A stretch of DNA of 62,254 nt, filler included, from Globobulimina sp. (Eukaryota): NCBI GenBank assembly GCA_003354225.1. It is 18 parts of 18 records of this genome, joined end to end, with 100 filler letters (N's around TTAATTAATTAA, not from the genome) between each part and the next. Parts side by side here need not be neighbours in the genome. Positions count along the whole stretch, not along the records: positions 13,869 to 17,234 come from PIVH01002968.1; 17 more parts are not named here. The stretch is one strand, 5' to 3'. Positions within the stretch are counted from its first letter, which is position 1. Each line of letters opens with the position of its first letter. Made by a program: the position numbers and the translations under genes. Below, in pieces: positions 6,635-54,658 of the stretch. The notes beneath the pieces were generated by a model. The model saw nothing but the letters and a program-made list of their open reading frames with translations. It ran no database searches and was not told where the DNA came from.

Positions 6635-6790
6635 TATTGCCTAGCTCAAGTAGAGCGCTGGATGTATGGATCCAGAAGATTCAGGTTCAATCCCTGAGGC
6701 GACTTCATCATATGAGTGAATTAAGAATGAAAAATGAAAAATATTTGGTGGCAATCAACAGCACCAAAAATCCAAGCAAATAAATGAAGG
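6635..6790 (+). repeat. tRNA-derived SINE-like element or tRNA pseudogene, copy 2
   Basis: TAGCTCAAGTAGAGCGCTGGATGTATGGATCCAGAAGATTCAGGTTCAATCCCTGAGGCGA. The 8-nt anticodon loop resembles a mutated CT-ACG-GA. Tail AGAATGAAAAATG..TTTGGTG..CACCAAA as in copy 1. Confidence 0.65.
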
Positions 6791-10402: not shown

Positions 10403-10521
10403 AATTATAATTTGATGATTAGGAAATTGTAAATAATTCTAACTTAATTTAATAACTTAAATTGTTGTAGCTAGCTAGCAGCAGCAGGCAGGCCAGCAGC
10501 TTGCGCTATTTTTGTTTTTTT
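10403..10521 (+). repeat. 119-bp exact terminal direct repeat of contig 4 (left copy)
   Basis: Identical to 13650-13768. Confidence 0.97.
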
Positions 10522-11008
10522 ATTTAAATATTATAAGATTTCAGATTTGAGGAAAATAGATAGAAAAATATAAATCGCATAAACCAACTTTTAATAAAGA
10601 ATAAATAAATAAAATAACCAAATCAATCCATAAAATGACGTTGTCGAGACAGCCTCAGCCGAATTAGGGAACCGGTCAGGCACTGAGTTATAAAGAGACG
10701 AATAGGCATGACCCCAATTTCGACTCTAGTTACTGTCAGTATGCCGAGCAACGTGTATTTTGGTCAACGACGGTTGATATTTGAACCAAAACACCTATCC
10801 GTAATTAATATCCATTAGTATAACCATTTTATAATGAAAATTAAGCATGCTGCATTTAATTGATTTCTTAAAGTTTTGAAGAAAAAAGTGTTAATTAGAA
10901 GGTTTTGTCTGACTAAAAAAAAGCAAGATTTTTATGTTTGATCTTAAAAAAAAAAAAATTATTCTAGAACATTAATAAGATACATTTAAATACAAGTCAT
11001 AATATGAA

Positions 11009-11029
11009 TATCCGTTACGCCACAGAGAT
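11009..11029 (-). pseudogene. Truncated 5' fragment of a tRNA-Arg gene
   Basis: Minus strand ATCTCTGTGGCGTAACGGATA closely matches the 5' end of the intact tRNA-Arg at 54585-54658 (GTCTCTGTGGCGTAATCGGATA). The similarity then stops abruptly. Confidence 0.6.
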
Positions 11030-11061
11030 ACATGTGTATATAAAAAGAAAAAAAAATAATA

Positions 11062-11084
11062 TGCCTTCACCCGGGATCGAACCG

Positions 11085-11118
<34 letters not shown>

Positions 11119-11134
11119 GCTGAGCTATAAAGGC
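11062..11134 (-). tRNA. tRNA-Phe (GAA)
   Basis: GCCTTTATAGCTCAGCTGGGAGAGCGTCAGACTGAAGATCTGAAGGTCCCCGGTTCGATCCCGGGTGAAGGCA: canonical 73-nt cloverleaf followed by a T-run Pol III terminator. Confidence 0.97.
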
Positions 11135-11214
11135 ATCGTCGTCGTTAAAAAAAATATCGCATACCGCCAGCCAGTCACAACCAAAACGAAAAAAACAACA
11201 AATATGTGGACTTT

Positions 11215-12051
11215 GAACCCAGATTCGTGTCTCTTTTAGCTTGCTTATATTGGATGGTTTGCTTTGTTTCGGTACCGGTGTCAGTTTGGATTGTTTTGGA
11301 ATGACATTGTCGGGTTTATTAGTGGTCAAACGCTGCGACTTTGCATCTACGATTTCATCGTGTTTCGAACTGAAACCATTGTAACGTATCTTCAGTTTGC
11401 CATTATCCAACACAGCGACAACGTGACACGCCCTCCATTTCTTGGTTGGCGATTTAATGAACAGTTGCTTTGGATATATAGCGTCGACGTCTTCTGACGG
11501 CATTGCAATGGATAAGCCTAAGCCTGCATAATTTTCATTCTTTTCATTGTTTTCGTTGTTTTTGTAGTCTTGTTCTGGTTGACAGTCCATTATGCTCTGC
11601 ATTTCATTAATGTTTAGTACGTAGATATTATAGGTATCGGTCATCCAATTTTTGTGTCTGAGTGGGTGCGAATGGCGGTCGTCATTGTTATTTGCGTCTT
11701 TTTTATAATATTGCTGCGATTCATGGATCAATTGGAGCACATATTGGATGTGTTGATGTTTCAGATCGAGAGTGTCTTTATAGCAATGGAGCATTTCTTG
11801 GTAGTCCTGTTTTGTCCACTTGTTGATGGTGCAGCCACTCAAACAATGTCCATAAAAGATGTCAGCCATTTGTTGCGCCAAAGACAGCTCAGATTCGAAT
11901 TGGTGCATTATTTCTAGTTCTAGCGATGTTTGTGCCTGTTTGGAGATATTTAGTTTGTGATATGGCAAATGTTTTATCCAATATGATAGTTTAGATGCCG
12001 TGTTCAAATGCAATAAATTAATGGGGGCGTTGGACTTTGACTTGGCTGACA
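11215..12051 (-). CDS. Hypothetical protein with Tudor-knot/chromo-barrel-like domain; 3' end uncertain
   Basis: Likely start MSAKSKS at 12051. WRACHVVAVLDNGKLKIRYNGFSSKHDEIV fits a chromo-barrel pattern. The ORF read-through into tRNA-Phe is probably not real. Confidence 0.6.
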
Positions 12052-12098
12052 TTATAATTATAAATTTAACAGTTGACTGAACTGAAGTCTGAAGTGAA

Positions 12099-13628
12099 GT
12101 GAAAAGTTTCCAGAAAACACAAACAATGACGTATTCCAGTTCGCGCGCACCTTTGTTGTTGCTGGAAGATTCCGGATCGAAACGCCGCAAAGACTTTGAC
12201 AGTCTGGATGGAGGGGCATGCCATATGGACAAATCCGCGGTGAAATCATGCGCCAACAAACGTTACCATTCGACGTTTTCAAATGAAACAGAAACCGATT
12301 CCGCTAAATTGAATGATAAACCGTTTAAATGCGACGCACTGTTCATGTTCCTCTTATTCTCATTGGCCATGGGCGCATTCATCATAGTTTTGCCATTCTT
12401 GATTTATTTCGATATGTTTGACATTCTCTTCATCAGCATCTCATACTTATTATTGTCCGTCTCTTTGGGCGTCGCCTTGGTGTCGAGCTCAATATGGCGC
12501 ATTCTGCAGTATTGCCCATTGAATTGCTGCCTGGAATGCATCAAAGAAACGCACGCCTTCAACATATTTTGTATTGTTCTCGGACTCTGTTTGATGGCAT
12601 TGGCTGTCATCGGTTTGCTGGACGAATTTAGCGATTCCTATAAGGAACATGACCATATCCGCTATCCATTGTGGTTGGACTTGTCTTTATTTGTTGTGTC
12701 CATCGCCTGCTTCATGTTCGTGTCGTGGGTCAATACGCAATACGCTCGAATGCAAAAAGAAAAAAGAATATTTTTACAAAATTATTATTACAACAAAATG
12801 ATAGCGGACGAAGGCGCTGCAAACGATTACAAACAAAACGAGGACAAAATCCCGACATATATTCAGAAAAATGGACCGTTGCATCCTTACGATCGATCTA
12901 TTTTTTCTTTCATATTTCACACATTTACGCATTTCCATTTGTTCGATGTAATCCGATTGGGATCAAAGAAAACACTGCAAACCTTCGACTGTTATTTCCC
13001 GCCCAAACCAGACGACATTGAGTATAATTTCGATAAATGGCGGCAACTGCATAGGAAACAGCAGAAAGAGAAAGGAAAAGGAAAAATCGGCACTTTCTCG
13101 TTGCTGTGGGCCATCGAATCCAAATCATTCATGCTGTTATGTGTCATATCGTTGGTGTCCACCTTGCCCGGTTTGGTAGTTCCAACCATCATTGGTAAAT
13201 TAGCAAATTTCTATGAAGATTTAAGCGTCGATTTGTATGTTGGCATCACACTGACTGTCGGTTTATTAGTTATCGGCGTTATTCGTATCTTTTTTGGAGC
13301 AATGTTAATGACATTCGCGTCTTGCGTAGCGGGCCGAGTCAATGGCTTATTGTCCTATGTCATATATCACAAAGCAATAAATATGTCCATTTCTAACGAT
13401 TCCACCGCAGAATTGTGCACTGGACAGAAAGTGACATTGCTGGCGGCCGACACAAGAATGATTGCCTACGCCTTGGCGTATCAGCCCATCTTTGTGGCGC
13501 AGTACATTATGATGGCGGCAGTCATTATTTTGTTACATGTCGAGCTGGGCATCTCTGCCTTGGCCGGCTGGCTCTTTGTCATTGTAATCTCCTTTCCGGT
13601 GCAGTCTGTATATGGTTATAATTTATAA
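12099..13628 (+). CDS. ABCC/MRP-type ABC transporter, N-terminal part only (TMD0, L0 lasso, start of TMD1)
   Basis: About 5 TM helices, then L0-like SIFSFIFHTFTHF..VIRLGSKKTLQ..D, then IYHKAINMS..TGQKVTLLAADT..ELGISALAG. No nucleotide-binding domain in the contig. Confidence 0.85.
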   Translation: MKSFQKTQTMTYSSSRAPLLLLEDSGSKRRKDFDSLDGGACHMDKSAVKSCANKRYHSTFSNETETDSAKLNDKPFKCDALFMFLLFSLAMGAFIIVLPFLIYFDMFDILFISISYLLLSVSLGVALVSSSIWRILQYCPLNCCLECIKETHAFNIFCIVLGLCLMALAVIGLLDEFSDSYKEHDHIRYPLWLDLSLFVVSIACFMFVSWVNTQYARMQKEKRIFLQNYYYNKMIADEGAANDYKQNEDKIPTYIQKNGPLHPYDRSIFSFIFHTFTHFHLFDVIRLGSKKTLQTFDCYFPPKPDDIEYNFDKWRQLHRKQQKEKGKGKIGTFSLLWAIESKSFMLLCVISLVSTLPGLVVPTIIGKLANFYEDLSVDLYVGITLTVGLLVIGVIRIFFGAMLMTFASCVAGRVNGLLSYVIYHKAINMSISNDSTAELCTGQKVTLLAADTRMIAYALAYQPIFVAQYIMMAAVIILLHVELGISALAGWLFVIVISFPVQSVYGYNL

Positions 13629-13649
13629 TGACATGTACAAACAAAAGGG

Positions 13650-13768
13650 AATTATAATTTGATGATTAGGAAATTGTAAATAATTCTAACTTAATTTAAT
13701 AACTTAAATTGTTGTAGCTAGCTAGCAGCAGCAGGCAGGCCAGCAGCTTGCGCTATTTTTGTTTTTTT
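13650..13768 (+). repeat. 119-bp exact terminal direct repeat of contig 4 (right copy)
   Basis: Identical to 10403-10521. Confidence 0.97.
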
Positions 13769-13868: not shown

Positions 13869-14794
13869 TTTTCGGGATTTCGGTTATTCATTGGAACCTC
13901 ATACCTATTTACGGTCACATTCTTTGTAAACCAGTGGAATGATGGAATAGTGGAATGTTGGAATTCTGGGTATGAAAAGCGACAAAAGGCCTATTAAAAA
14001 AGATGTTGCACATACATTTTTTTTGATAATCATTACAGCTCTTGTTGATAAAAGATTAAGATTCATCTTTTTCCTTTGTGTCTGGCTTAGTGGCTGAACC
14101 TTTATTATTGAAATATGCAAAACTATTAAAAGGATATAACATTAATTTAAATGGAGAAACCTTAAAAACAAAGGAAGAGCATTCAAAACTTGGTTGGTAT
14201 TATTTTGCAAATGCTGATAATGAGAGTCATCAAATTGGTGATATTCGAGTCAGATTTTGGATCATTACCAAACCATTATCATTGACAGTTATTGGTACAC
14301 AAAATGGTGATGCGATTAATATAAATTATAATAATCAAAATAACAATGTATGTGTGAGAAGTATTGGGAGATACAAATTGGACAATGTATTGAAAAGAGT
14401 ATGTCACGTAAACTTAATAAATAATGAAACCGGATCTATATTCGTAATGACAAATGTTGCATTGTGTTTGTGTATTTATTCCATCGAATTGTTGAAACCT
14501 ATAATTTTGGTCAAAAATGATGATCTAAATAATATGGAATGTGACAAAAAAAAGATTCGTACAAATGAAGTTGGTTTAAGAGCATTGGTTGGAAGTGTTT
14601 CAATTTGTGTACCAGTTTATTGTCTGAGTATCATGCAGCCACATATTGAAACATTCTATGCTAAGCGCCATGGACTAATGAAGTCAATTGGAATTTTAGC
14701 AGTGGTCTCCATTATCTTGGGCAGTACTCAAGTAACTCAACGCCTTGCACAAAACTCGGAAATTCAGACAAAAAAAAATTGTGAAAAAATTTAG
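13869..14794 (+). CDS. TMEM43-like membrane protein, 3' half
   Basis: YYF....SHQIGDIRVRF....LTVIGTQNG resembles TMEM43 PEVGDLRVSF..VTVIARQRG, followed by TM helices. Splicing near 13970-14060 is unresolved. Confidence 0.75.
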
Positions 14795-14982
14795 TTTGAC
14801 AGCAAAGAAAGAATAAAAGTGTCCATATAAAATGTTGAAATCAACAAAGAAAATCAATTGACAATTTTTGATCCAATACACTTTTTGATCCATCATCAAG
14901 ATTTGTATCTCAATTCTCTTATATTTTATATTTGAAATGACTTTTTCCATTCCAATGTGTCGTTAACTATTTGTTTGAACAT

Positions 14983-15741
14983 TTATAATATTAAACAATC
15001 TTTGATCTTCCTTTTCTTTTTTTGCGGCTTAAGAACACATCTGATGGCTTCATCAAATGTTTCTGTTAATCCATGTTGAGTCAATGCGGAACATTCGACA
15101 AAGCCATTAGCTTTGACTTGTTTTGCTAATTTTTGTCCTTGTTGAGCGGATATTAATTGCGCTTTATTTAAGCCAGTTTCTTTTAAATCACATTTTGTCG
15201 CAACAATAATAAACGGTACCTTTGGACAATGATGTTTTATTTCCGGTATCCATTTCAGTTTTACATTCTCAAATGAAGAGCGCAAATCACATGCATAACA
15301 AACTAAAAATACATCAGTTTGTGGATATGATAACGGTCTGAGTTTGTATTTTGTATTTACATTTGTGACTGTTTTGTATTTATATATTTTATTAATTAGA
15401 TACCTTAATCGATCATAATCTTCCTGACCTGCCGTATCCCAAAGCATTACGTTTACGAATTTACCATCAACCAACACATTTGTTTGATAGTTATCAAACA
15501 CTATTGTTTTTTTTGTTTTTTGTTTCTCAAATTATATATAATGAGAGGCAAATTGTAGAATGATAAACCTGTTGGAATATGTTCATGAGGGAAGGCATTC
15601 TGTGAATATGAAACCAATAAACATGTTTTACCTAAATGACAAATCAAAAACATATGTAATTTGTCAACAGCAAAGTACATCATTTGCGAACATTATACCT
15701 ACTGCTCCATCACCAACCGTTACTATTTTAACACCTAACAT
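14983..15741 (-). CDS. Rho/Rac-family small GTPase, 4 exons
   Basis: [57 protein letters not shown], then a polybasic tail and CaaX CLIL. Confidence 0.95.
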
Positions 15742-15992
15742 TATTTCTTCGATAAAGTATTATTAAATTTTGATGCGGCAATTAAATATTCTTTTAAAAA
15801 CTTTCCAGTTAAAAAAACTAATAATAATGGCAACGCCTCTTGTTTAGACGTACAGCCTCGTTACAAACTAATATAAACAAACAATGCAAACAACAATGAA
15901 ATTGATTCTTTTTATAATTTCATCGTGCTATGCGTTGATTCTTTTTATAATTTTAAGATTAATCTTTTCGTTCGCAAACTTAATTTAACAAA

Positions 15993-16616
15993 ATGGGCCT
16001 GGGCTGCAGCATAGACATTTGCAGTGACGAGGATCATGAATATTCAGCGAGATCAAGACAAATGCGTGATGTAGACATTGAAGATTTAGCTAAATCTGAT
16101 TTTGTTGAAGTTTCTAAATCAGATGAATATGCTGCAGCTGATAATGATGAACGAATACCATACGCAACAACTGAGGATTTAACAAATATACCAACGAAAA
16201 ATGATAATAAAATAGGAACGCCTTTAATTGCTATTTCTGAGGATATATCAGTTAATAATTATAATAATACACAGCAACAACAATTAAAAACATCAGCAGA
16301 TGCACGGCAACTTCAAGCGTTAAGAAAGAAATATAGTTCACGTAAAGTAATATTGCCAGAAAAGGATAAATCAAAAACTCCACAATGTGTTGATTGTGGT
16401 GGTTTTTATCACATTCAAGCGGACCCTTTGACCGCCTACGAAGGTGTTGGTATTGTTTGTGCCCAATGTGGGAAAAATAGAAATGATAATCCTGAATTAT
16501 TGTTGGAAGATCATTATTATAAATGCGAACAATGTGAAAACGTTGATGTTTGCTCTAAATGTTATCAACACGAAAAAGGAAAGTTGCTTAATTTAAATTC
16601 ATCCACTGTCATATGA
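15993..16616 (+). CDS. Predicted N-acylated (MGLGCS) protein with C-terminal Cys-rich ZZ-like zinc finger
   Basis: N-terminal MGxGCS; CxxC..CxxC..YYKCEQC...DVCSKC. Confidence 0.7.
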   Translation: MGLGCSIDICSDEDHEYSARSRQMRDVDIEDLAKSDFVEVSKSDEYAAADNDERIPYATTEDLTNIPTKNDNKIGTPLIAISEDISVNNYNNTQQQQLKTSADARQLQALRKKYSSRKVILPEKDKSKTPQCVDCGGFYHIQADPLTAYEGVGIVCAQCGKNRNDNPELLLEDHYYKCEQCENVDVCSKCYQHEKGKLLNLNSSTVI

Positions 16617-16767
16617 ATGTGTTTTGTGTTTTTGCTCAAATCCGCAGAAACAATAAAAAACTAATTGGAAATGAACATGTGTGTTTGCTCTGTGTGATTG
16701 TTAAACAAATCCGCTGATTAGGACAGAATCCAGTTTTCGAATTCCAAAATCACTTTAAATCATCAAA

Positions 16768-17234
16768 TTGCGGAATGCAGACAAGCAACTCCAACACGGA
16801 TTTATCATTTCGACTCCGTCAACGTTTCGTATATGTTGCATTCTTTTATTGGTAGGAATATGTTATAGATTACGTACAGTTGGAGCAGCGACATTGGCTG
16901 GAACAATTGGCATATGTTTCGCGTATACATCAATGAATCTGTTCAGGTCAAACCAAAGAAATTATCTTCGAAACTTCAAGAAATTTCTAAATGCAAAATA
17001 CAACGTTAAGTATATCACAGTACACTAATATGTATATATCACATTATGCACAAACAGTGTCGCATTGTATCACAACCGTCACCGACAAATGAAAACAAAT
17101 TAATTTATATCTCCGATGATATAAAACCAAATGATAATATATCCGATGATATATTTGAATTTAATGATACATGTCCCAGTCAAGCAATTTATTTATATCG
17201 TGACTGTGAAATGTATCAATGGAAAGAAAACAGA
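16768..17234 (+). CDS. TMEM43-like membrane protein, 5' half (two exons, runs off contig end)
   Basis: PTNENKLIYISDDI...AIYLYRDCEMYQWKE resembles TMEM43 ENEGRLVHI...AVKLRRHVEMYQWVE. Confidence 0.75.
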
Positions 17235-31488: not shown

Positions 31489-32034
31489 ATGGTAACCTTT
31501 ACCTGCGTGCAATGTCAATGGACTGGTAAGAAGAAACAAGTCGAAAAGCATTATAATCGATGTGGTGGTGATTTTTTTTCATGTGTTGATTGTGGGAAGA
31601 CATTTGCTGAGGATTACGCCAAACATACATCATGCATTGATGAGGAGGATAAATATCATGGCAAATGGGCAAAATCAAAGAAAAAAGAGCAAAATCGCGC
31701 AAATCATCAGCAGATGGCTCAAAATAAAAAACTGAGTCATAAAAAATCTAACTCATCAAACGGAAATAATTTAAAGCGAAAAATAGAACAAAATGCAAAT
31801 AACAATAATCCACCATTAAAGAAACAAAAAGTTGATATAGGAAATAATAATGTCACAAAACAAAACAAAAAAAAGATATTAAAAAAGATTTTGAAACAGG
31901 AACAAAATGCAATATCATTAAAAACAGTTTGTAATAAGTTTAATGAAGAGATGAAGATTGAAAATAAAGACGATAATTCACTCTTTTTCCAGACATTGTG
32001 GAAGATGAAGGATAAGATATCCATCAACCTGTAA
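31489..32034 (+). CDS. LYAR: LYAR-type C2HC zinc-finger nucleolar protein
   Basis: MVTFTCVQC....KKKQVEKHY.RC....FSCVDCGKTF....Y.KHTSCI.EE.KY, followed by a Lys-rich region. Confidence 0.88.
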   Translation: MVTFTCVQCQWTGKKKQVEKHYNRCGGDFFSCVDCGKTFAEDYAKHTSCIDEEDKYHGKWAKSKKKEQNRANHQQMAQNKKLSHKKSNSSNGNNLKRKIEQNANNNNPPLKKQKVDIGNNNVTKQNKKKILKKILKQEQNAISLKTVCNKFNEEMKIENKDDNSLFFQTLWKMKDKISINL

Positions 32035-34055: not shown

Positions 34056-34128
34056 TGGAGTACCCGGGTTTCGATCCCGGTGCCTTAACGTTGCGAACGT
34101 TACGCGCTTCCGATTGCGCCAGTACCCC
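34056..34128 (-). tRNA. tRNA-Ala (CGC)
   Basis: GGGGTACTGGCGCAATCGGAAGCGCGTAACGTTCGCAACGTTAAGGCACCGGGATCGAAACCCGGGTACTCCA, with the G3:U70 alanine identity pair. Confidence 0.93.
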
Positions 34129-54584: not shown

Positions 54585-54658
54585 CATCTCTGGCGGGACT
54601 CGAACCCGCAATCTTCAACTTAGGAGGCCGACGCGTTATCCGATTACGCCACAGAGAC
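54585..54658 (-). tRNA. tRNA-Arg (CCT)
   Basis: GTCTCTGTGGCGTAATCGGATAACGCGTCGGCCTCCTAAGTTGAAGATTGCGGGTTCGAGTCCCGCCAGAGATG. The anticodon stem has two G:U pairs; a T-run terminator follows. Confidence 0.88.

Follow-up and report, generated by a model that had tools for sequence, protein, structure and literature searches.

Two partial TMEM43-like genes at the ends of a Globobulimina sp. contig that do not rejoin as a single split gene

When a contig begins with the 3' part of a gene and ends with the 5' part of a gene of the same family, does it hold one gene, cut open where a circle was linearized, or pieces of two? The question is raised by positions 13869-17234 of the window analyzed here, a stretch of 62,254 bases in which 18 contigs of 3360-3368 nt, sorted by descending length, are separated by spacers of N with TTAATTAATTAA. 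The window is a set of 18 unrelated contigs and not one locus, and the contig under study (contig 5; 3366 nt, GC 0.32) has no physical linkage to anything beyond its own two ends. A first-pass annotation had read it as a single TMEM43-like gene that is split between the two ends and rejoins in frame from 17234 to 13869, on a circle or tandem unit that would also carry a Rac GTPase and a ZZ-finger gene. A true circle, or a gene spanning the junction, would suggest that a eukaryote carries an amplified or extrachromosomal element. The feature as described, a split gene whose halves meet in frame and imply a circle, is not real: the contig is a fragment with two incomplete genes of a known family, and the evidence favors an ordinary contig break in a fragmented assembly.

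From left to right, the contig carries a TMEM43-like 3' part, a Rho/Rac GTPase gene, a Cys-rich ORF, and a TMEM43-like 5' part, with the two TMEM43-like pieces on the same (+) strand (Table 1). Five introns were verified, all of 53-68 nt. An Rfam search found no tRNA in the contig (four across the window), and no repeats or inverted repeats longer than 30 nt were found to account for its ends.

Table 1. Features of contig 5 (positions are those of the window)
Feature	Position	Strand	Evidence
Left-end sequence, intron or non-homologous flank	13869..14090	+	frame 1 open 13869-13994; no family or Pfam match
TMEM43-like 3' part, left copy, to TAG stop 14792-14794	14091..14794	+	PF07787 1.6e-07; own profile 131-345, 302 bits
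Rho/Rac-family small GTPase, 185 codons, 4 exons	14983..15741	-	Pfam Ras 4.8e-34
Cys-rich, ZZ-like zinc-finger ORF, single exon, 207 codons, starts MGLGC	15993..16616	+	ORF; ZZ sub-cut-off
TMEM43-like 5' part, right copy, 3 exons, running off contig end	16775..17234	+	P0005 identity; own profile

The gene model of the right-hand piece was fixed using P0005, a relative of 245 residues that bears a EukProt label. Its three exons (16775-16823, 16880-17004, and 17058-17234) are separated by introns of 56 nt (16824-16879) and 53 nt (17005-17057), and the spliced translation of 117 residues is identical to residues 1-117 of P0005 at 116 positions. Exon 3 (177 nt, 59 codons) agrees with P0005 59-117 throughout (100% identity, 59/59, tblastn). 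For placement within the family, we built one profile from the five nearest relatives and another from six, with P0006 added. Exon 3 occupies positions 1-64 of the 5-sequence profile at 112 bits, the match stopping exactly at the contig end, and positions 1-63 of the 6-sequence profile. The exon alone retrieves no Pfam family at E<=10. P0005 matches the Pfam TMEM43 family (PF07787) at 39.2 bits, with its residues 110-238 aligned to model positions 1-133; since the model begins at the EMYQW motif, the right end reaches no further than about Pfam position 8. The TMEM43-like identity of this part is thereby upheld through its 116/117 agreement with a protein that is itself a PF07787 match from residue 110, and the reported translation ...EMYQWKENR, when re-derived, is correct and finishes on a codon boundary at 17234. 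In a simple hydropathy scan, the N-terminal stretch of the right 5' part lies below the Kyte-Doolittle threshold of 1.6.

The left-hand piece belongs to the same family. Its ORF (14060-14794, 244 residues) scores 31.4 bits against PF07787 (E 1.6e-07, cut-off 23.3) over model positions 110-177 of 250, and it aligns to positions 131-345 of the 5-sequence profile at 302 bits and to positions 131-342 of the 6-sequence profile. Between 14102 and 14287, 60 of 62 residues are identical to P0005 184-245, and the ORF is 46-57% identical to P0001-P0004. Three hydrophobic segments appear in this 3' part in a Kyte-Doolittle scan. The order that had been claimed, 5' half on the right and 3' half on the left, and the TMEM43-like identity of both therefore stand; what does not is the placement of the 3' half at the very end of the contig, as the 3' part starts only at about 14091-14102.

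This family homology sets in 222-233 nt into the contig, and it is lost upstream abruptly, within about 10 nt: the three codons that precede 14102 all disagree with P0005, vs 2 of 62 downstream. Alignments of the four family representatives to the ORF begin only at its residue 12-16. Residues 1-13 of the ORF at 14060 were considered as a homologous extension and rejected, with 185 of 500 shuffles scoring as well and no database alignment reaching them. An in-frame TAA (14057-14059) stands ahead of the ORF, whose first ATG falls at about residue 131, and a pyrimidine-rich, acceptor-like TAG site ends at 14090, precisely where homology starts. Downstream, the frame is unbroken over 232 codons, with 97% identity to P0005. 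The left copy may thus carry a lineage-specific intron ending at 14090, with its upstream exon off the contig, or it may be a 5'-truncated duplicate or a rearrangement breakpoint. An intron of at least 222 nt is argued against at this boundary because the five verified introns of the contig measure 53-68 nt and four relatives are uninterrupted there. In these four (P0001, P0002, P0003, and P0006), the protein continues without a break from MYQW as far as the stop, so that the gap after MYQW is not an expected intron. To judge from their start points and sources, the four are probably ORF calls on genomic contigs; P0001 opens with residues that contig 5 encodes at the end of intron 2 of the right copy.

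Whether the two pieces are consecutive can be read from the family profiles. They do not overlap (1-64 and 131-345), and they are not consecutive, with 66 conserved residues lying between them (profile positions 65-130 in the 5-sequence profile or 64-130 in the 6-sequence profile, corresponding to P0005 118-183). Across these positions, neither profile aligned to any part of contig 5. This block is well conserved and present in all six relatives. A tblastn search with P0005 118-183 found no match in contig 5 or in the other 17 contigs, nor was the block recovered from those 17 by the 6-sequence profile, the best match of which (E=0.023, contig 10) was rejected as it is not TMEM43 by Pfam. A continuous domain, one that takes in the EMYQW motif, the middle block, and the C-terminal segments, is accordingly absent from the contig, a statement about the contig and not necessarily about the genes of the genome.

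What lies at the left end instead is a short open frame. Frame 1 of the contig reads FSGFRLFIG...NQWNDGIVE for 42 codons before a stop at 13995-13997, so the first-pass translation was right and the frame is open as stated, but the peptide is without the significant family similarity that a continuation of the TMEM43-like gene would call for. It scores -2.8 bits (E=15) on the 5-sequence profile, and all six forward-strand ORF pieces in 13869-14087 score negative on the family profile. Searches with the peptide returned no Pfam family at E<=10 and no database protein sharing three 5-residue words with it. In Smith-Waterman comparisons with five relatives, 148, 362, 432, 472, and 94 of 500 shuffles equaled the observed score. 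The left 233 nt of the contig show no similarity elsewhere in the window, and GC is 0.35 over 13869-14098. By eye, the peptide resembles FTV...NDxEGITE in P0005 (~160-177), and a diverged middle block was considered on these grounds; it was discarded, with shuffles, profile, and splice test all at chance.

Splice models connecting the left ORF to the 3' exon comprise 11 frame-compatible GT/GC-AG pairs, 2 of them stop-free and both dependent on a weak donor at 13957. Splicing from 13957 to 14090 was likewise rejected, as the profile score gains only 0.9 bit (302.4 vs 303.3), a gain equaled by 18 of 200 when the added residues are shuffled. The spliced ORF would, moreover, align to profile positions 108-126 and would not continue directly from EMYQWKENR. 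The Trp spacing, described as close to that of TMEM43, did not survive comparison: in the artificial join, the next Trp comes 27 residues after the W of MYQW, vs 11-15 in the six nearest relatives. Its codon (13935-13937) falls inside a 16-nt tandem duplication at 13933-13964.

The in-frame rejoining itself rests on an artificial junction preceded by 75 open codons and followed by 42 in one frame. To gauge this continuity, all 18 contigs were circularized and scanned on both strands, taking the best phase per strand and a threshold of at least 30 open codons on either side. Such frames occur on 8 of 36 contig strands, in 7 of 18 contigs, the contigs of the window being gene-dense and often ending in coding sequence. 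Frame continuity at 17234 -> 13869 is thus no better than chance; it is a coincidence of two open frames.

In de Bruijn assemblies, a closed path is usually recognized by an exact terminal overlap. Within the window, this signature is seen in contig 4 (10403-13768) and not in contig 5: contig 4 carries an exact terminal direct repeat of 119 nt (119/119), the sole one among the 18, which suggests a closed path. A suffix-prefix comparison of contig 5 found no exact overlap of at least 11 nt, and its best ungapped end-to-end identity of 40% is background, the same as for other contigs. If contig 4 was indeed closed with its 119 nt, the assembly can close such paths, and it left contig 5 unclosed. 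With no terminal overlap of at least 11 nt and a gene that is not consecutive across the junction, the proposal that the contig is a circle is not supported.

The reading that we consider probable is that contig 5 is a linear fragment lying between two head-to-tail TMEM43-like copies. In a gene-dense, AT-rich eukaryotic genome with short introns, the contig would begin within or just before the 3' part of one copy, would then span two genes, one for a Rho/Rac GTPase (opposite strand) and a small one for a Cys-rich protein, and would end in exon 3 of a second, head-to-tail copy that presumably continues to the right. The two pieces would accordingly be tandem paralogues or successive duplication units, and not one gene cut by the linearization of a circle. 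Since two head-to-tail copies in a linear array explain the order of parts equally well, that order is not, as had been argued, sensible only on a circle or tandem unit. P0005 is about as similar to one piece as to the other (1/117 and 2/62 differences), so that an origin of the two from different copies cannot be demonstrated. Counted against the linear reading is that the pieces are nearly complementary in the profile (1-64 and 131-345) without any overlap, and that their shared strand and their order are what a permuted unit would give; the picture would be no different for a circle or tandem unit in which a short stretch had failed to assemble, and the acceptor at 14090 fits an intron with its upstream exon off the contig. 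These observations bear on an identical unit of a tandem array, or an extrachromosomal circle, of ~3.6-4 kb that was left unclosed, with the missing block in the gap and 13869-14090 as the 3' part of an intron. The complementary, non-overlapping pieces, the 3' part preceding the 5' part on one strand, the acceptor-like site, and the match of P0005 to both pieces at 97-99% all speak for such a unit. We nevertheless regard it as unlikely, in that it needs an intron of at least 222 nt where the five verified introns measure 53-68 nt and where four relatives are uninterrupted; the three codons after the putative acceptor all differ from P0005, and the ends do not overlap even though contig 4 appears to have been closed with 119 nt. 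Quite doubtful, too, is the fuller form of this idea, a young tandem array unit or extrachromosomal circle on which the TMEM43-like gene is rebuilt only across the unit junction, via an exon missing from the assembly and an intron of unusual length, and which also carries the Rho GTPase and the zinc-finger gene.

A third possibility concerns the left boundary alone: the contig could be a chimeric misassembly, or its left copy a rearranged, 5'-truncated one fused to unrelated sequence at ~14091-14101, in which case a second intact copy on the left need not be supposed. Loss of homology within ~10 nt, the in-frame TAA at 14057-14059, the lack of an ATG in the left ORF before about residue 131, and a left 233 nt that match nothing else in the window would all follow. 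Set against this are the intact downstream frame of 232 codons, 97% identical to P0005, the acceptor-like site right at the boundary, and the lack of any positive sign of assembly error, and we rate such an event as rather improbable. The direct junction of the first-pass annotation, in which 17234 is followed by 13869 on a circle or tandem unit and the junction frame encodes a TMEM43-like protein, is scarcely credible. It can draw on the 75 and 42 open codons about the junction and on the stop-free splice from 13957 to 14090 that would connect the left ORF to the 3' exon. It is disfavored above all because its product would miss 43-66 positions conserved in every one of the six relatives; in addition, the left peptide lacks family similarity, its Trp stands 27 residues after the W of MYQW instead of 11-15 and is encoded inside the 16-nt tandem repeat, junction-spanning open frames are common (8/36), and the ends share no overlap.

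As with tandem paralogues in eukaryotic genomes, two same-strand copies flank two other genes, and the TMEM43-like family has several database members that are 46-57% identical to each other. Unlike tandem paralogues that can be measured, the copies on contig 5 are seen only in part, and neither their divergence nor the unit size is derivable from them. The gene order also resembles that of a rotated unit, as in closed paths of short-read assemblies; unlike those, the contig lacks a terminal repeat, and its two ends do not carry adjoining parts of the gene.

Resemblance to TMEM43/LUMA (PF07787, formerly DUF1625) is seen in the left ORF, which exceeds the Pfam cut-off, and in P0005, which matches the model from its EMYQW motif. 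TMEM43 is described as having four transmembrane segments, one N-terminal and three C-terminal (PMC12295021), and the three hydrophobic segments of the left piece would fit the C-terminal three of that layout. Unlike typical TMEM43/LUMA proteins, the subfamily on contig 5 is divergent and rare, both copies are incomplete on the contig, and the contig lacks the conserved block that follows EMYQW. When the left ORF (244 residues) was used in a word-indexed search, 5 proteins out of 299 candidates were recovered, and of 1.84 billion representatives scanned exhaustively with HMMER, 7 passed E<=1e-3, of which four are true family members; so small a number indicates a rare subfamily, and it is a poorly sampled one. 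No solved structure was found for any relative in the PDB copy searched.

Both genes said to lie between the halves were also examined. For the proposed ZZ-finger gene, a Cys-rich ORF is indeed present there, and its assignment to the ZZ family was not sustained: against Pfam ZZ (PF00569), the ORF scores 17.2 bits, under the cut-off of 21.4, and covers only model positions 20-39 of 45. Its best Atlas score (0.85) points to zinc-finger clusters of the C1/KKT2/KKT3 type and is no more than a lead. The Rac GTPase, by contrast with this partial outcome, was confirmed by its Pfam Ras match (4.8e-34). The minus-strand model joins four exons (15741-15699, 15631-15569, 15500-15404, and 15337-14983) across introns of 67, 68, and 66 nt without an internal stop, and it ends in a CAAX-type C-terminus, CLIL. 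A Ras-fold domain together with a CAAX box places the protein in the Rho/Rac family, and the model is 51-57% identical to five Rac/Cdc42/Rho proteins. Its last exon alone retrieves 1128 homologues, with full-coverage matches at 39-60% identity and one match at 73% over 43% of the query, and these are scattered across animals, fungi, and protists.

Contig 4 (10403–13768) ends in an exact copy of its own first 119 nt, an exact terminal overlap found in this contig only among the 18 contigs of the window. Because both ends share the identical 119 nt, we read the contig as a closed path of 3247 nt, which would represent either a circle or a tandem repeat. The contig carries a tRNA gene and two long open reading frames on opposite strands; a Pfam search with the 511-aa frame returned no family above the cut-off.

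tRNA genes in the window and long open reading frames of contig 4
Feature	Location	Strand	Contig
tRNA	11062–11134	-	4
Long ORF, 415 aa		-	4
Long ORF, 511 aa		+	4
tRNA gene	6635–6705		other than contig 4
tRNA gene	34056–34128		other than contig 4
tRNA gene	54585–54658		other than contig 4

The GC content of contig 14 (45048–48409) is 0.45, far above that of the remaining contigs, and the 18 contigs may therefore stem from more than one genome.

The TMEM43-like subfamily, which includes the left ORF of contig 5 (14060–14794) and its database relatives P0001–P0006, is very sparsely represented in the database: of the 1.84 billion cluster representatives searched, just 7 matched at E ≤ 1e-3. Among these seven, P0008 (3.3e-07), in whose sequence internal repeats are visible, and P0009 (4.7e-04) have weak E-values. 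On contig 10, an ORF at 31502–31747 (minus strand), not assigned to TMEM43 by Pfam, displayed faint similarity to the region of the EMYQW motif with a profile built from the six nearest relatives (E = 0.023, 10 bits).

Within the left-end open frame of contig 5, a 16-nt unit is tandemly duplicated at 13933–13964 with 94% identity. Since the unit length is not divisible by three, the duplication is compatible with noncoding sequence. At the other end of the contig, the right-hand TMEM43-like copy has the unusual donor GTTTCG in its first intron (16824–16879). GTT begins the donor in three of the five verified introns of contig 5.
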